A program made the position numbers and the translations under genes. From NCBI RefSeq assembly GCF_000026545.1, contig NC_011601.1: a DNA stretch of 64,000 nucleotides. One strand, 5' to 3'. The notes under the pieces were generated by a model, which did no database searches, had not been told where the DNA came from, and saw only the letters and a program-made list of their open reading frames with translations. Positions 2,062-5,474 of this stretch are shown here, piece after piece; positions within the stretch are counted from its first letter, which is position 1, and the number at the start of each line of letters is the position of its first letter. Origin of the DNA: Escherichia coli O127:H6 str. E2348/69. Its GTDB lineage: Bacteria; Pseudomonadota; Gammaproteobacteria; Enterobacterales; Enterobacteriaceae.

Positions 2062-3117
2062 ATGCGTAAAATCATTCATGTGGATATGGACTGCTTTTTC
2101 GCCGCGGTGGAGATGCGCGACAATCCCGCCCTGCGCGATATCCCTATTGCTATTGGCGGCAGCCGCGAACGCCGGGGGGTGATCAGCACCGCCAATTATC
2201 CCGCGCGTAAATTTGGCGTGCGTAGCGCAATGCCAACCGGCATGGCGCTCAAACTGTGTCCGCATCTCACCTTGCTTCCAGGACGCTTTGACGCCTACAA
2301 AGAAGCGTCAAATCATATCCGCGAAATTTTCTCGCGCTATACCTCGCGCATTGAACCGTTATCACTGGATGAAGCCTATCTCGAGGTCACCGATAGTGTG
2401 CATTGCCACGGCTCCGCGACCCTCATCGCCCAGGAAATCCGCCAGACGATTTTCAACGAGCTGCAATTGACGGCATCTGCGGGCGTTGCGCCGGTAAAGT
2501 TTCTCGCCAAAATTGCTTCCGACATGAATAAACCCAACGGTCAGTTTGTGATTACTCCGGCTGAGGTTCCGGCATTTCTGCAAACCTTACCGCTGGCAAA
2601 AATTCCCGGCGTCGGCAAAGTCTCAGCGGCTAAACTGGAAGCTATGGGGCTACGAACCTGCGGTGATGTGCAAAAGTGTGATCTGGTGACTCTGCTCAAA
2701 CGTTTTGGCAAATTTGGCCGCATTTTGTGGGAGCGTAGTCAGGGCATTGACGAGCGCGATGTTAACAGCGAAAGGTTGCGAAAATCCGTCGGTGTAGAAC
2801 GTACGATGGCGGAAGATATTCATCACTGGTCTGAATGTGAAGCGATCATCGAGCGGCTTTACCCTGAACTGGAGCGTCGTTTGGCAAAGGTAAAACCTGA
2901 TTTGCTGATTGCCCGCCAGGGGGTGAAATTAAAGTTCGACGATTTTCAGCAAACTACTCAGGAGCACGTCTGGCCGCGGCTGAATAAATCTGCTCTAATC
3001 GCCACCGCGCGTAAAACCTGGGATGAACGCCGCGGCGGGCGCGGTGTGCGGCTGGTGGGGCTGCATGTGACGTTGCTTGACCCGCAAATGGAAAGACAAC
3101 TGGTGCTGGGATTATGA
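2062..3117 (+). CDS. dinB: DNA polymerase IV (Y-family translesion polymerase)
   Basis: 351 aa, N-terminus 'MRKIIHVDMDCFFAAVEMRDNPALRDIPIAIGG', typical DinB/UmuC family. Confidence 0.95.
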   Translation: MRKIIHVDMDCFFAAVEMRDNPALRDIPIAIGGSRERRGVISTANYPARKFGVRSAMPTGMALKLCPHLTLLPGRFDAYKEASNHIREIFSRYTSRIEPLSLDEAYLEVTDSVHCHGSATLIAQEIRQTIFNELQLTASAGVAPVKFLAKIASDMNKPNGQFVITPAEVPAFLQTLPLAKIPGVGKVSAAKLEAMGLRTCGDVQKCDLVTLLKRFGKFGRILWERSQGIDERDVNSERLRKSVGVERTMAEDIHHWSECEAIIERLYPELERRLAKVKPDLLIARQGVKLKFDDFQQTTQEHVWPRLNKSALIATARKTWDERRGGRGVRLVGLHVTLLDPQMERQLVLGL

Positions 3118-3566
3118 ATAACATACAAATAAGAAACTATCAGCCTGGCGATTTTCAGCAACTATGCGCTATTTTCATTAGAGCGGTTACGATGACCGCC
3201 AGTCAGCATTATTCACCACAACAAATTGCCGCCTGGGCGCAGATTGACGAATCTCGCTGGAAGGAGAAACTCGCGAAATCACAAGTGCGGGTTGCAGTTA
3301 TTAATGCACAACCGGTTGGTTTTATCTCCCGCATTGAACATTATATCGATATGTTATTTGTTGACCCTGAATACACCCTCCGTGGGGTTGCCAGCGCTTT
3401 GTTAAAACCTTTGATTAAGTCTGAATCCGAACTTACGGTGGACGCCAGCATAACCGCAAAACCCTTTTTTGAACGTTATGGTTTTCAGACAGTTAAGCAG
3501 CAGCGCGTTGAATGCCGGGGAGCGTGGTTTACTAATTTTTATATGCGATATAAACCGCAACATTAA
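3114..3566 (+). CDS. yafP: GNAT-family acetyltransferase YafP
   Basis: 150 aa ORF; its ATG overlaps the dinB stop (ATGA at 3114-3117); GNAT-like sequence. Confidence 0.8.
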   Translation: MNNIQIRNYQPGDFQQLCAIFIRAVTMTASQHYSPQQIAAWAQIDESRWKEKLAKSQVRVAVINAQPVGFISRIEHYIDMLFVDPEYTLRGVASALLKPLIKSESELTVDASITAKPFFERYGFQTVKQQRVECRGAWFTNFYMRYKPQH

Positions 3567-3744
3567 ATCCAGCTTGCAAAGAAAATAACGCCCGCCTAGT
3601 ATGTGCGCGTTTTCTTATTCCACAAACTGCAAGGAGGTAAATCATGACAAATCCTTTATCAATGACTCTTTGCAGACCTTTCCAGGATTAATTCTTTTTT
3701 TCTTGCCCTGGATTCGTCTGCCATTTCCTGATTTTTATTCATAA

Positions 3745-4896
3745 ATGGAATGGTACATGGGCAAATATATTCGTCCCTTATCTGATGCGGTACTTACCAT
3801 CGCATCTGATGACCTGTGGATCGAGAGTTCAGCGATCCAACAATTACACACCACGGCAAATTTACCCGACATGCAACGCGTAGTAGGGATGCCAGATTTA
3901 CACCCCGGACGCGGCTATCCGATTGGCGCAGCGTTCTTCTCCGTAGGCCGTTTTTACCCGGCACTGGTCGGCAATGATATCGGCTGCGGTATGGCGCTAT
4001 GGCAAACAGATATTTTCGCGCGCAAATACAACGCCGATAAGTTTGAAAAGCGATTATCAGATCTGGATGACGTTGCTGAAGAAAGCTGGCTGGAGGAAAA
4101 CCTGCCGTCAGCATTTGCACAGCATCCGTGGCGCAGCTCGCTTGGCTCCATCGGTGGCGGTAACCACTTCGCAGAACTGCAACAGATTGATCAAATTATC
4201 GACGCGGAACTGTTTGCACTGGCTGGTCTGGATGCGCAGCATCTGCAACTGCTGGTTCATAGCGGCTCGAGGGGGTTGGGGCAGTCTATTTTACAGCGGC
4301 ATATTGCCTCGTTTTCGCATCATGGTTTGCCGGAAGGCAGTGACGACGCGCTAAGTTATATTGCGGAACATGATGATGCGCTGGCGTTTGCGCGTATTAA
4401 TCGCCAGCTGATCGCTTTGCGCATAATGCAACAAGTTAAGGCCAACGGAAATTCGGTTCTGGATGTGGCGCATAACTTTGTTAGCGCATGTCGAATCGGC
4501 GATCAACAGGGCTGGTTACACCGTAAAGGGGCTACGCCGGATGACAACGGTCTGGTGATTATTCCCGGTTCACGCGGTGATTACTCCTGGCTGGTTAAGC
4601 CTGTTGCGAACGAAAAAACGCTCCACTCGCTGGCGCATGGGGCAGGGCGTAAATGGGGGCGCACCGAGTGTAAAGGGCGTCTGGCAGCGAAATACACGGC
4701 GACGCAACTCTCACGTACTGAACTTGGCAGTCGGGTAATTTGTCGCGATAAACAACTCATCTTTGAAGAAGCGCCACAAGCCTATAAATCGGCTGAAAGT
4801 GTGGTGCAATGTCTGGTGCTGGCTGGGTTAATTATTCCTGTCGCGCGACTGCGTCCGGTGCTGACGCTCAAAAACAGTGGAGGGAAAAAAGGATGA
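3745..4896 (+). CDS. rtcB2: RtcB-family RNA ligase paralog (RtcB2/YkfJ); start may be the Met at 3757
   Basis: 383 aa ORF with an RtcB-like '[10 protein letters not shown]' motif; stop overlaps the prfH start (ATGA at 4893-4896). Confidence 0.8.
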
Positions 4897-5474
4897 TCTT
4901 GCTACAACTCTCCTCAGCTCAGGGGCCGGAAGAATGTTGTCTCGCAGTGAAAAAGGCACTGGACAGGCTGATTAAAGAAGCTGCCCGACAAGACGTCGCG
5001 GTAACGGTGCTGGAAACAGAAACGGGTCGCTACTCTGACACACTACGTTCGGCGCTGGTTTCACTTGATGGCGACAACGCATGGGCTCTAAGCGAAAGCT
5101 GGTGCGGCACTATTCAGTGGATTTGTCCGAGTCCGTATCGGCCTCATCATGGGCGCAAAAACTGGTTTCTGGGCATTGGGCGTTTTACCGCTGATGAGCA
5201 GGAACAATCGGATGCAATCCGTTATGAGACGCTGCGTTCGTCGGGGCCGGGCGGTCAACATGTCAATAAAACCGACTCGGCGGTACGCGCCACGCATCTG
5301 GCATCCGGTATTAGCGTGAAGGTTCAGTCAGAGCGCAGTCAGCATGCTAACAAACGGCTGGCGCGATTACTGATTGCCTGGAAGCTGGAACAACAGCAAC
5401 AGGAAAATAGCGCGGCGCTGAAATCGCAGCGGCGAATGTTCCATCACCAGATTGAACGTGGCAACCCGCGATGA
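4893..5474 (+). CDS. prfH: Peptide chain release factor homolog PrfH (GGQ domain, no codon-recognition domain)
   Basis: Start taken at '[15 protein letters not shown]' inside ORF 4809..5474; contains '[17 protein letters not shown]' (GGQ catalytic motif of class I release factors). Confidence 0.85.

Follow-up and report, generated by a model that had tools for sequence, protein, structure and literature searches.

Does a very short open reading frame (ORF) with a strong Shine-Dalgarno (SD) sequence, lying just ahead of a ribosome-repair operon in Escherichia coli O127:H6 str. E2348/69, couple expression of that operon to the state of the ribosomes? The window (the whole stretch of DNA analysed, 64,000 nucleotides of contig NC_011601.1) carries the two genes of the operon side by side:

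3757..4896, plus strand: rtcB2, release-factor-H-coupled RtcB RNA ligase, 379 amino acids (NCBIfam NF007153, 639.7 bits; TIGR03073, 618.7 bits)
4893..5474, plus strand: prfH, peptide chain release factor H, 193 amino acids here (NCBIfam TIGR03072, 321 bits)

The rtcB2 start at 3757 follows the PGAP annotation of an E. coli genome that has the same sequence here, and the rtcB2 stop overlaps the prfH start in the sequence ATGA (4893-4896). PrfH is here 97% identical to the common 204-residue E. coli protein and terminates 11 residues early. RtcB2 and PrfH were shown in 2022 to rescue and re-ligate ribosomes damaged by colicin E3, and a search of the RtcB2-PrfH literature found no account of how the operon is regulated. 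In K-12, ykfJ is a truncated rtcB2, reported to be inducible by 4-azaleucine (Morita 2006, as cited in PMC3516279).

The element in question is the following:

3644..3691, plus strand: leader ORF of 15 codons, MTNPLSMTLCRPFQD and a stop; read directly and matched by a covariance model built from Pseudomonas alone; probable orthologue of PA5471.1 of Pseudomonas aeruginosa

Direct inspection upholds the reading from which the original prediction began, that of a mini-ORF served by a strong SD: AAGGAGGT (3631-3638) is separated by the spacer AAATC (3639-3643) from an ATG at 3644-3646, and the frame runs ATG ACA AAT CCT TTA TCA ATG ACT CTT TGC AGA CCT TTC CAG GAT TAA, with its stop codon at 3689-3691. 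The gap of about 55 nt that had been proposed between this ORF and the first possible rtcB2 start is 53 nt when counted to the first ATG in the rtcB2 frame (3745) and 65 nt to the annotated start at 3757; that rtcB2 has no convincing SD of its own is likewise correct, with just the weak GGAATGG (3747-3753) before 3757. A stop-free frame across so short a span is uninformative by itself. The pattern AAGGAGGTN5ATG, however, occurs once in the window, both strands considered, against a mean of 0.03 in dinucleotide-preserving shuffles. Other uses of the same region were tried and rejected: a 47-codon ORF (3601-3744) that might have claimed the SD begins upstream of it, within the -10 box, and two minus-strand ORFs (3532-3645 and 3659-3742) are short, with no support seen for either. 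PGAP leaves the leader ORF unannotated in every genome inspected; neither its K-12 coordinates (253239 and 253286) nor its peptide or the gene names occur in the one Ribo-seq supplement searched; a literature search with the peptide string returned no match, and no publication describing the E. coli leader was found.

Upstream of the leader, a promoter is visible through cross-genus conservation only:

3574..3579, plus strand: -35 hexamer TTGCAA of the predicted leader promoter, from cross-genus conservation
3597..3602, plus strand: -10 hexamer TAGTAT, conserved in most genera as TA(n)TAT, TAGCAT or TAGGAT followed by a CGCGC-like sequence

The G+C-rich discriminator GTGCGCG directly follows TAGTAT, and transcription is predicted to start near 3609. 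A scan of 3400-3900 called no consensus promoter at a threshold of 9 of 12, since this one scores 8 of 12. The arrangement TTGCAA, 17 nt, TAnnAT is nonetheless kept ahead of the leader in Escherichia, Citrobacter, Klebsiella, Providencia, Proteus, Pseudomonas, Aquitalea and others, despite the unrelated genes that lie upstream in different genera.

Within E. coli, 5405 of 5426 genomes show almost no variation anywhere along the spacer, so that such conservation is uninformative on the leader ORF specifically. Comparison across species is more telling. An rtcB2 orthologue and prfH form an operon at 80 species loci, including that of P. aeruginosa PA7, where the orthologue is armZ (61% identity). 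At 75 of these loci, drawn from several bacterial orders, an ORF of 13-16 codons with a strong SD occupies the same place before rtcB2-prfH, the commonest SD again being AAGGAGGT with a 5-nt spacer; the distance to rtcB2 is usually 60-130 nt, and larger where an element has been inserted. All 75 leaders carry the motif [TS]LC[RG], with the stop four codons (rarely five) beyond the Arg/Gly codon. Among distant PrfH operons a single one was informative, most contigs being too short to include the upstream region: in a Sericytochromatia genome whose PrfH is just 36% identical, the arrangement is similar. Promoter, leader and switch appear to travel along with rtcB2-prfH.

One member of this family has a known biology. 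PA5471.1 is the 13-codon leader of the operon of armZ (PA5471) and PA5470, the latter being prfH (Morita et al. 2009, as described in PMC12057347, PMC13041342 and PMC3516279). According to these papers, its translation is monitored, and stalled ribosomes lead to induction of both the RtcB-like armZ and PA5470; ribosome-targeting drugs, and defects in suhB, cca, fmt or folD, induce armZ through stalling on PA5471.1; and an amber codon at Q3 or deletion of the leader results in high ArmZ. The ORF found in PA7, of 13 codons and about 250 nt upstream, is MIQFSTLCRLRLA, which is PA5471.1: Gln3 is encoded as CAG (C at position 7) and Phe4 as TTC (C at 12), in agreement with the mutations given in PMC13041342.

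Pseudomonas and E. coli leaders have in common the sequence CUUUGCAG[GA] followed by four codons and a stop, and a covariance model made from 12 Pseudomonas leaders alone, PA7 included, matches the 64-kb window significantly just once, on the plus strand at 3625-3697 (31.6 bits, E 2.6e-7; next-best match E 0.24). The E. coli element thus resembles PA5471.1 in sequence and structure; it also lies directly upstream of rtcB2 and then prfH on the same strand, is a short ORF with its own SD (15 codons here, about 13 in PA5471.1), and contributes its coding sequence to mutually exclusive RNA pairings. A terminator between leader and gene was sought by scanning 3400-3900 and none was found, a matter of output mechanism that is not counted against homology. 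Orthology to PA5471.1 follows from position, from motif and ORF geometry, from the covarying pairings and from the match to the Pseudomonas-only model, and on these grounds the mini-ORF is probably a ribosome-sensing leader of the PA5471.1 type. The proposal that it couples the operon to ribosome status, originally offered as speculation, is thereby supported. Rfam holds no family that reaches threshold in 3300-4000, the best hit being STnc350 on the minus strand (20.7 bits against a gathering score of 60), which we regard as chance because the Salmonella locus does not reproduce it; nor did any family reach threshold on leaders from six species, P. aeruginosa PA7 among them.

The pairings involve four segments of the RNA and a helix extension:

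3627..3638, plus strand: segment 1, CUGCAAGGAGGU, containing the leader SD AAGGAGGU (3631-3638); read directly; pairs with segment 2
3666..3677, plus strand: segment 2, CUCUUUGCAGAC, spanning codons 8 (Thr) to 11 (Arg) plus the first base of codon 12; partner of either segment 1 or segment 3
3681..3686, plus strand: 5' arm UCCAGG of the 2:3 helix extension; from folding and family pairing
3707..3712, plus strand: 3' arm CCUGGA of the 2:3 helix extension; from folding and family pairing
3715..3728, plus strand: segment 3, CGUCUGCCAUUUCC; from covariation and RNAalifold
3747..3759, plus strand: segment 4, GGAAUGGUACAUG, covering the weak SD region of rtcB2 and its start codon; partner of segment 3

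Free E. coli RNA folds as 1:2 plus 3:4. The 1:2 helix (3627-3636 with 3675-3666) has a probability of 0.96-1.0 in this state; across 55 distinct leaders 87.8% of its alignment cells are paired, one pair covaries (GC:21, AU:20, GU:4), and its covariation score was reached by none of 500 shuffles. The competing 2:3 core (GCAGAC 3672-3677 with GUCUGC 3716-3721) is 99.1% paired in the same 55 leaders, three of its six pairs covary (AU:38/GC:11/GU:6, GC:37/AU:15/GU:3 and CG:38/UG:12/UA:3), its score was again matched in 0 of 500 shuffles, and RNAalifold recovers it independently. GCAG 3672-3675 belongs to both helices, and covariation supports both. Beyond the core, the 2:3 extension (3681-3686 with 3707-3712), which closes a loop holding the leader stop codon, forms with a probability of 0.98-1.0 once a ribosome occupies the leader start; family-wide only 59% of its cells are paired in fixed register, because the size of the internal loop varies. 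Segment 3, some 40 nt before rtcB2, pairs through its 5' half with segment 2 and through its 3' half, alternatively as a whole, with segment 4. This 3:4 helix has a probability of 0.5-0.9 in free RNA and is paired in 76.7% of cells across the family, against 17-45% in slid registers; in Providencia its arms differ yet stay complementary. The 2:3 and 3:4 helices overlap by just 1-3 nt (C3721 in the core form), and with a core overlap of one nucleotide they are not strictly exclusive.

Conservation falls on the open frame and the RNA switch rather than on the peptide. A functional 15-residue micropeptide acting in trans, for instance on RtcB2, PrfH or the ribosome, would explain why T/S-L-C-R/G looks conserved as amino acids in 75 species, but the Leu-Cys-Arg/Gly codons are CTT TGC AGR or GGR with no synonymous variation, G+C-rich Pseudomonas included (the Cys codon is TGC in 75 of 75 leaders), and such changes as occur covary with their RNA partners, the change from Arg to Gly tracking a U-to-C change in segment 3. 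The N-terminal half of the peptide varies freely; in Achromobacter the UGCAGG element lies in another frame and is read Ala-Ala-Gly; P. fuscovaginae retains the same pairing logic with a different sequence; and in wild-type P. aeruginosa neither Q3K nor F4L raises ArmZ. A trans-acting micropeptide is therefore highly improbable, and the leader peptide itself is probably without function. The original prediction had named a peptide that varies within conserved nucleotides as a point against a leader: conservation is indeed at the RNA level, but the SD, the start codon, the reading frame and the place of the stop have all been kept, and as it is the act of translation that counts in attenuators, an unconserved peptide does not refute the leader. 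RNA-level conservation would equally suit an untranslated structured RNA, such as a protein-binding site or riboswitch, in which the SD-like sequence is a hairpin arm and the ORF incidental, and in the minimum-energy structure of the free RNA the SD is indeed paired. Such an RNA would, however, have no need of what 75 of 80 species have kept: an ATG correctly spaced from the SD, a frame free of stops and a stop codon at a constant distance. The distance from ATG to the Cys codon is always 21, 24, 27 or 30 nt, changing in multiples of three where a hairpin loop would tolerate any length, and the spacing from segment 1 to the ATG runs from 11 to 18 in single-nucleotide steps. The variable codons contain no in-frame stops, with 35 and 19 in the other two frames, a zero that is partly by construction because leaders were chosen as ORFs; even so, no more than 5 of the 80 loci failed that selection. 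PA5471.1 mRNA is, moreover, ribosome-associated and nonsense mutations in it alter regulation, so that an untranslated RNA is very unlikely. A chance ORF beside a chance SD-like octamer has nothing in its favour except the shortness of the ORF; its probability is negligible, and the comparative data (conservation in 75 species of several orders, covariance model E of 2.6e-7), alongside an expected pattern count of 0.03 in the window, already refute it.

The leader is thus likely to be a translated regulatory element within an RNA switch that tunes rtcB2-prfH expression to ribosome performance. The conserved sigma-70 promoter (TTGCAA, 17 nt, TAGTAT) would give a transcript from about 3609; ribosomes would load on the SD and translate the 15 codons, as the conserved SD, ATG, frame and stop and the translation of PA5471.1 in P. 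aeruginosa suggest. Segment 2 (CUCUUUGCAGAC) can pair either with segment 1, which holds the leader SD, or with the GUCUGC of segment 3, whose own alternative partner is segment 4 with the rtcB2 SD region and AUG, as covariation shows for these pairings. In the off state, a ribosome reaching the leader stop would cover segment 2, allowing segment 3 to close over the rtcB2 start, and after its release segment 2 would go back to the leader SD. In the on state, a ribosome brought to a halt on the leader start or close to it, possibly by a damaged decoding centre, antibiotics or too little charged tRNA, would hold segment 1 and leave segment 2 free; 2:3 would then form, the helix over the rtcB2 start would be shortened and rtcB2 translated, with translation of prfH following through the ATGA overlap. 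Induction under stalling agrees in direction with P. aeruginosa genetics. The modelled off state is also the fold of free RNA (1:2 plus 3:4), yet expression is high in P. aeruginosa when the leader is not translated; either kinetics matter or output logic differs between species.

How the switch acts on rtcB2 is a separate matter. Folding with a ribosome footprint masked on the leader start yields 2:3 with a probability of 0.8-1.0 and raises the mean unpaired probability of the E. coli rtcB2 start region from 0.25-0.27 to 0.42, with similar values in Enterobacteriaceae loci L006-L018; with the footprint masked at the leader stop, the value stays at 0.25. The computed gain in E. coli is modest, and masked folding gave none in the Proteus loci or in most Pseudomonas loci. 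A simple switch in which 2:3 excludes 3:4 was set aside in view of the one-nucleotide overlap and the modest effect in silico, and is retained just as the likelier of two outputs. The 3:4 hairpin covers GGAAUGG, can reach the AUG and is conserved, its release by 2:3 being partial in silico; we lean, tentatively, towards occlusion of the ribosome-binding site rather than transcription termination as the E. coli output. The other output would keep the same leader and the same sensing and place the regulated step at premature termination, intrinsic or Rho-dependent, before rtcB2, with occlusion secondary. The published model of PA5471.1 is one of transcription attenuation with a 3:4 terminator, and the small thermodynamic effect on accessibility of the rtcB2 start points the same way, as does the spacer 3692-3730, which is pyrimidine-rich and G-poor like Rho loading sites. 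Rho polarity would in any case act on an untranslated rtcB2. Against this, neither strand of 3400-3900 contains a site resembling an intrinsic terminator; the U-rich runs lie within hairpin loops and not 3' of a stem; the spacer is merely 60-100 nt in most species; and segment 4 adjoins the rtcB2 AUG in all genera. At 212 nt, the spacer of P. aeruginosa exceeds that of most other Pseudomonas by more than 100 nt, and the terminator there may therefore be peculiar to the lineage. Premature termination as the regulated step in E. coli is accordingly rather unlikely.

Whichever output operates, the leader suggests a more speculative possibility, doubtful as it stands: that rtcB2-prfH is a repair circuit which induces itself, with damaged ribosomes acting as the inducer. 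Those whose decoding centre has been cut by colicin E3-type nucleases, or that are otherwise disabled, would still bind the perfect 8-nt leader SD but be unable to elongate; held there on segment 1, they would throw the switch and so call up the very ligase and release factor that repair them.

Such a reading of the leader unites a literature in which the armZ leader figures as a peculiarity of MexXY efflux with the rtcB2-prfH repair operon, as one conserved cassette. It offers a testable regulatory mechanism for ribosome repair in E. coli and other enterobacteria, with the prediction that ribosome-targeting antibiotics and toxins induce rtcB2-prfH, and recasts the induction of ArmZ as an ancestral stalled-ribosome response of the repair module. 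In addition, it delineates a cis-regulatory RNA of wide distribution that matched none of the Rfam families.

The closest known system is PA5471.1 itself, whose mechanism one review describes as apparently unique to MexXY. The genes behind the two leaders are orthologous (E. coli RtcB2 and ArmZ share 61% identity, and prfH corresponds to PA5470), and the E. coli leader shares with PA5471.1 a strong SD, a similar ORF length, a CUU UGC AGG element four codons before the stop and the same type of promoter; the known function of PA5471.1 is to sense ribosome stalling. The E. coli leader differs in having 15 codons rather than 13, an unrelated N-terminal half, a spacer of 65 nt rather than 212 nt and, unlike the transcriptional model for P. 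aeruginosa, no detectable terminator, whilst the protein encoded downstream, a ligase of ribosome repair, is not known to act as an anti-repressor.

Translational attenuation leaders control inducible resistance genes such as ermC, ermB, cat and cmlA. As in erm and cat, a short leader ORF with its own SD is combined here with four segments whose pairing a stalled ribosome would redirect, the ribosome-binding site of the regulated gene lying within the last. In erm and cat leaders, however, stalling requires a particular nascent peptide together with a drug, and segment 1 is part of the ORF, whereas in the rtcB2 leader the SD of the leader itself forms segment 1, a general failure of translation appears to be the inducing signal, and 2:3 and 3:4 overlap by only 1-3 nt. 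Stalling specific to a nascent peptide does not fit a peptide that is unconserved beyond the RNA-paired codons and an element that changes frame in Achromobacter. The amino-acid operon leaders trpL, hisL and leuL, together with tnaC, also use the position of a ribosome on a leader ORF to select an RNA structure or, in tnaC, to block Rho, and the choice between alternative structures proposed here is of that kind. Unlike trpL, hisL and leuL, the rtcB2 leader has no run of regulatory codons and no canonical terminator, and its proposed signal is the performance of ribosomes rather than the supply of one amino acid. Finally, the paralogous E. coli rtcBA operon is under RtcR/sigma-54 control (as cited in PMC9304027 and PMC12606134). 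In both operons an RtcB RNA ligase would be regulated by damage to the translation apparatus, but where rtcBA relies on an enhancer-binding protein and sigma-54, rtcB2-prfH would do so with a sigma-70-type promoter, a cis-acting ORF and an RNA switch.

The original prediction placed a Shine-Dalgarno (SD) sequence, start codon and frame ahead of the rtcB2-prfH operon that match the sequence, and rightly held that rtcB2 starts without a convincing SD, only GGAATGG preceding its annotated start. The locus, on an Escherichia coli chromosome, is laid out as follows:

dinB, 2062-3117
yafP, 3114-3566
Spacer between yafP and rtcB2, 190 nt
Predicted promoter hexamers, 3574-3579 and 3597-3602, predicted start near 3609
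Leader SD AAGGAGGT, 3631-3638, then a 5-nt spacer AAATC
Leader ORF (+), ATG at 3644, frame MTNPLSMTLCRPFQD, TAA at 3689-3691
rtcB2, 3757-4896, release-factor-H-coupled RtcB ligase (NCBIfam)
prfH, 4893-5474, PrfH (NCBIfam)
pepD, minus strand, downstream of prfH in gene order

The window has a single AAGGAGGTN5ATG, where shuffles lead one to expect 0.03. The leader is overlapped by a 47-codon ORF in a different frame (3601-3744, +), probably not expressed, whose ATG falls within the -10 hexamer and precedes both the SD and the predicted transcription start. In this strain dinB and yafP are directly adjacent, their frames overlapping by 4 nt (3114-3117), and the yafN-yafO toxin-antitoxin pair found between them in K-12 (locus L001, 2006-2700) is missing, as also from strain Combat11I9 (L004). 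PrfH here (4893-5474) is 193 residues long and 97% identical to the common 204-residue E. coli form up to a premature end that removes the last 11.

Of 5426 complete E. coli genomes, 5405 have the spacer at an identity of at least 95%, and the leader ORF, which PGAP annotates in none of the E. coli genomes listed or inspected, is unchanged in K-12 and its relatives. Because the spacer is nearly invariant throughout, variation within E. coli is uninformative and other genera were needed. Scanning a single genome from each species by means of an RtcB2 alignment returned 80 loci, whose hosts include Escherichia, Citrobacter, Klebsiella, Kosakonia, Providencia, Proteus, Morganella, Serratia and Budviciaceae, many Pseudomonas including P. 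aeruginosa PA7, and Cupriavidus, Achromobacter, Aquitalea, Tahibacter and others. Upstream of rtcB2 in 75 of them stands a 13-16 codon ORF with a strong SD, most commonly AAGGAGGT with a 5-nt spacer, usually 60-130 nt from rtcB2 (further where an element is inserted) and ending in [TS]LC[RG] plus four, rarely five, codons. Representative leader peptides are:

Klebsiella, MNTDFQNALCRPSQE
Proteus, MTTTNMNTLCGQSQK
Pseudomonas, MQQLITLCRSRLA
P. aeruginosa PA7, MIQFSTLCRLRLA
Salmonella, MTLYSLNALCRHFQH

In P. aeruginosa, expression of armZ (PA5471) and PA5470, whose products are described as RtcB-like and as prfH, is controlled by a 13-residue leader, PA5471.1, some 250 nt upstream (PMC12057347, PMC13041342, PMC3516279). 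The PA7 ORF fits both this description and the published mutations (PMC13041342), Gln3 being CAG with C at position 7 and Phe4 being TTC with C at position 12. When a covariance model was trained on 12 Pseudomonas leaders only, it gave a single match in the 64-kb window, at 3625-3697 (+; 31.6 bits, E 2.6e-7), the next best having an E of 0.24. This makes the E. coli mini-ORF the orthologue of PA5471.1.

Conservation lies in an RNA and an open reading frame rather than in a peptide. Synonymous variation is absent from the motif codons, which are CTT (rarely ATT, TTT or AAT), always TGC, then AGA, AGG, GGA or GGG; this extends to G+C-rich Pseudomonas, where CTT and AGG are expected to be rare codons. 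Achromobacter retains both the UGCAGG element and an SD-led ORF, in which the element is read as Ala-Ala-Gly, and the P. fuscovaginae leader has a different sequence with complementarity to its downstream partner retained. The frame, for its part, is held: the distance from ATG to Cys codon is always 21, 24, 27 or 30 nt, while the spacing of SD region to ATG shifts by single nucleotides, and variable codons contain no stops in the leader frame against 35 and 19 in the others, a contrast partly built in by selecting leaders as ORFs. That selection failed at just five of the 80 loci, two of which merely have a C-terminally extended ORF. The N-terminal half of the peptide varies freely.

Four pairing segments run from the leader SD to the rtcB2 start:

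Segment 1, CUGCAAGGAGGU, 3627-3638, holds the leader SD
Segment 2, CUCUUUGCAGAC, 3666-3677, within the leader ORF
Segment 3, CGUCUGCCAUUUCC, 3715-3728, about 40 nt ahead of rtcB2
Segment 4, GGAAUGGUACAUG, 3747-3759, rtcB2 SD region and AUG

Pairs were counted in a gapless, anchor-based alignment of 55 distinct leaders. The 2:3 core (GCAGAC 3672-3677 / GUCUGC 3716-3721) is paired in 99.1% of cells, against 23-45% in slid registers; three of its six pairs covary (AU:38/GC:11/GU:6, GC:37/AU:15/GU:3 and CG:38/UG:12/UA:3), with a score reached by none of 500 shuffles, and RNAalifold recovered the helix from an ordinary MAFFT alignment too. On this evidence the apparent Arg-to-Gly replacement in the leader motif is in fact 2:3 covariation. 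An extension (UCCAGG 3681-3686 / CCUGGA 3707-3712) places the leader stop codon within an enclosed loop, and in other clades its sequences differ with complementarity kept. The 1:2 helix (3627-3636 / 3675-3666) is paired in 87.8% of cells, with one clearly covarying pair (GC:21/AU:20/GU:4) and a score likewise reached by 0 of 500 shuffles. The 3:4 helix (CCAUUUCC 3721-3728 / GGAAUGG 3747-3753) is paired in 76.7% of cells against 17-45% in slid registers; its arms in Providencia are quite different yet complementary. The 2:3 and 3:4 cores share just one nucleotide, and enterobacterial segment 3 can pair further, reaching the rtcB2 AUG (C3715-G3759, one mismatch).

Two further stretches were observed nearby. 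In the predicted 5' untranslated region, UUAUUCCA (3615-3622) is complementary to UGGAAUGG (3746-3753), and the two pair when the RNA is folded with the leader start occupied by a ribosome; an equivalent UUCCAU-like motif occurs in several genera, not all, and may be a fifth switch element or chance. Directly 3' of segment 3, CUCCUUA, AUCCUUA or CACCUUA occurs at loci L008, L013, L015 and L021 and in Providencia, the E. coli equivalent (3724-3732) being UUUCCUGA. These resemble the 16S rRNA 3' end, ACCUCCUUA, which is the part of the ribosome that colicin E3 cleavage frees.

How the switch is read out was approached by folding the E. coli transcript while masking a ribosome footprint at various sites, giving for the rtcB2 start region:

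Free RNA, helices 1:2 and 3:4, mean unpaired probability 0.23-0.29
Ribosome on leader start, 2:3 at probability 0.8-1.0, mean unpaired probability 0.40-0.44
Ribosome at leader stop, 3:4 persists, mean unpaired probability 0.25-0.27

Accessibility shifts in the same direction in Enterobacteriaceae loci L006-L018, with little or no effect in Proteus and most Pseudomonas loci. Erm-like translational attenuation is accordingly favoured for E. coli, a tentative reading that falls a little short of an even chance; prfH expression would follow that of rtcB2 through the ATGA overlap joining their frames. The logic has been established by experiment in P. aeruginosa, where the armZ promoter is constitutive and complete leader translation keeps armZ off; it is turned on by stalling, through ribosome-targeting drugs or defects in suhB, cca, fmt or folD, and also by a leader Q3 amber mutation or leader deletion. 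There is one discrepancy: the free E. coli RNA folds into the proposed off state, whereas P. aeruginosa mutants without leader translation are on. The main rival, that the output is transcription termination, possibly Rho-dependent, seems rather unlikely, and no intrinsic terminator is detectable in the E. coli leader region.

Ahead of the leader, TTGCAA, 17 nt, TAnnAT and a G+C-rich discriminator are conserved across genera with unrelated upstream genes, so that leader-rtcB2-prfH appears to form a transcription unit of its own rather than dinB-yafP read-through. The discriminator (3603-3609) is GTGCGCG, and CGCGC-like in most genera; such sequences are typical of ppGpp/DksA-repressed promoters and could tie expression here to growth rate. 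A Sericytochromatia genome with PrfH just 36% identical has a comparable layout, with a promoter-like TTGCAA, 17 nt, TAATAT, an SD-led 12-codon ORF MTKINISLLGLN, and hairpins sequestering the leader SD and over the rtcB SD; its overall fold is no better than shuffles. This single locus suggests that the regulatory cassette accompanies rtcB/prfH genes widely.

Several other elements lie around the leader. K-12 and relatives carry a 127-bp ERIC element between leader ORF and rtcB2 start, with a remnant in some strains. ERIC-type repeats or remnants lie between segments 3 and 4 at L001 (~3336-3462), L005, L014 and L073, in K-12, another Escherichia species, Klebsiella spallanzanii and a further enterobacterium; the 3:4 hairpin loop (3729-3746), uninterrupted in the window, looks like a recurrent insertion site, and insertion there would lengthen the hairpin covering the rtcB2 start. 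Upstream of the leader promoter, the Salmonella dinB-rtcB2 spacer has a repeat (L085 2180-2303, -) that is probably a further ERIC-like element; it matches Rfam V_AS5 below threshold, at 39.9 bits where the gathering score is 96. In Providencia rettgeri, a sok antitoxin RNA of a hok/sok-type module (L023 965-1127, -; Rfam RF01794, 87 bits) sits a few hundred bases upstream of the leader.

The RtcB2-PrfH literature examined mentions neither leader, ArmZ nor regulation; the ArmZ literature records PA5471 as homologous to E. coli ykfJ and notes induction of ykfJ by 4-azaleucine (PMC3516279), and one review considers the leader mechanism apparently unique to MexXY. Literature searches turned up no account of the E. 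coli leader, whether by its peptide, by ykfJ, by PA5471.1 or by leader peptides in connection with RtcB, and Rfam 15 has no family matching it. Within this literature, the E. coli leader is new and belongs to the PA5471.1-type leaders, whose family-wide RNA architecture appears undescribed.
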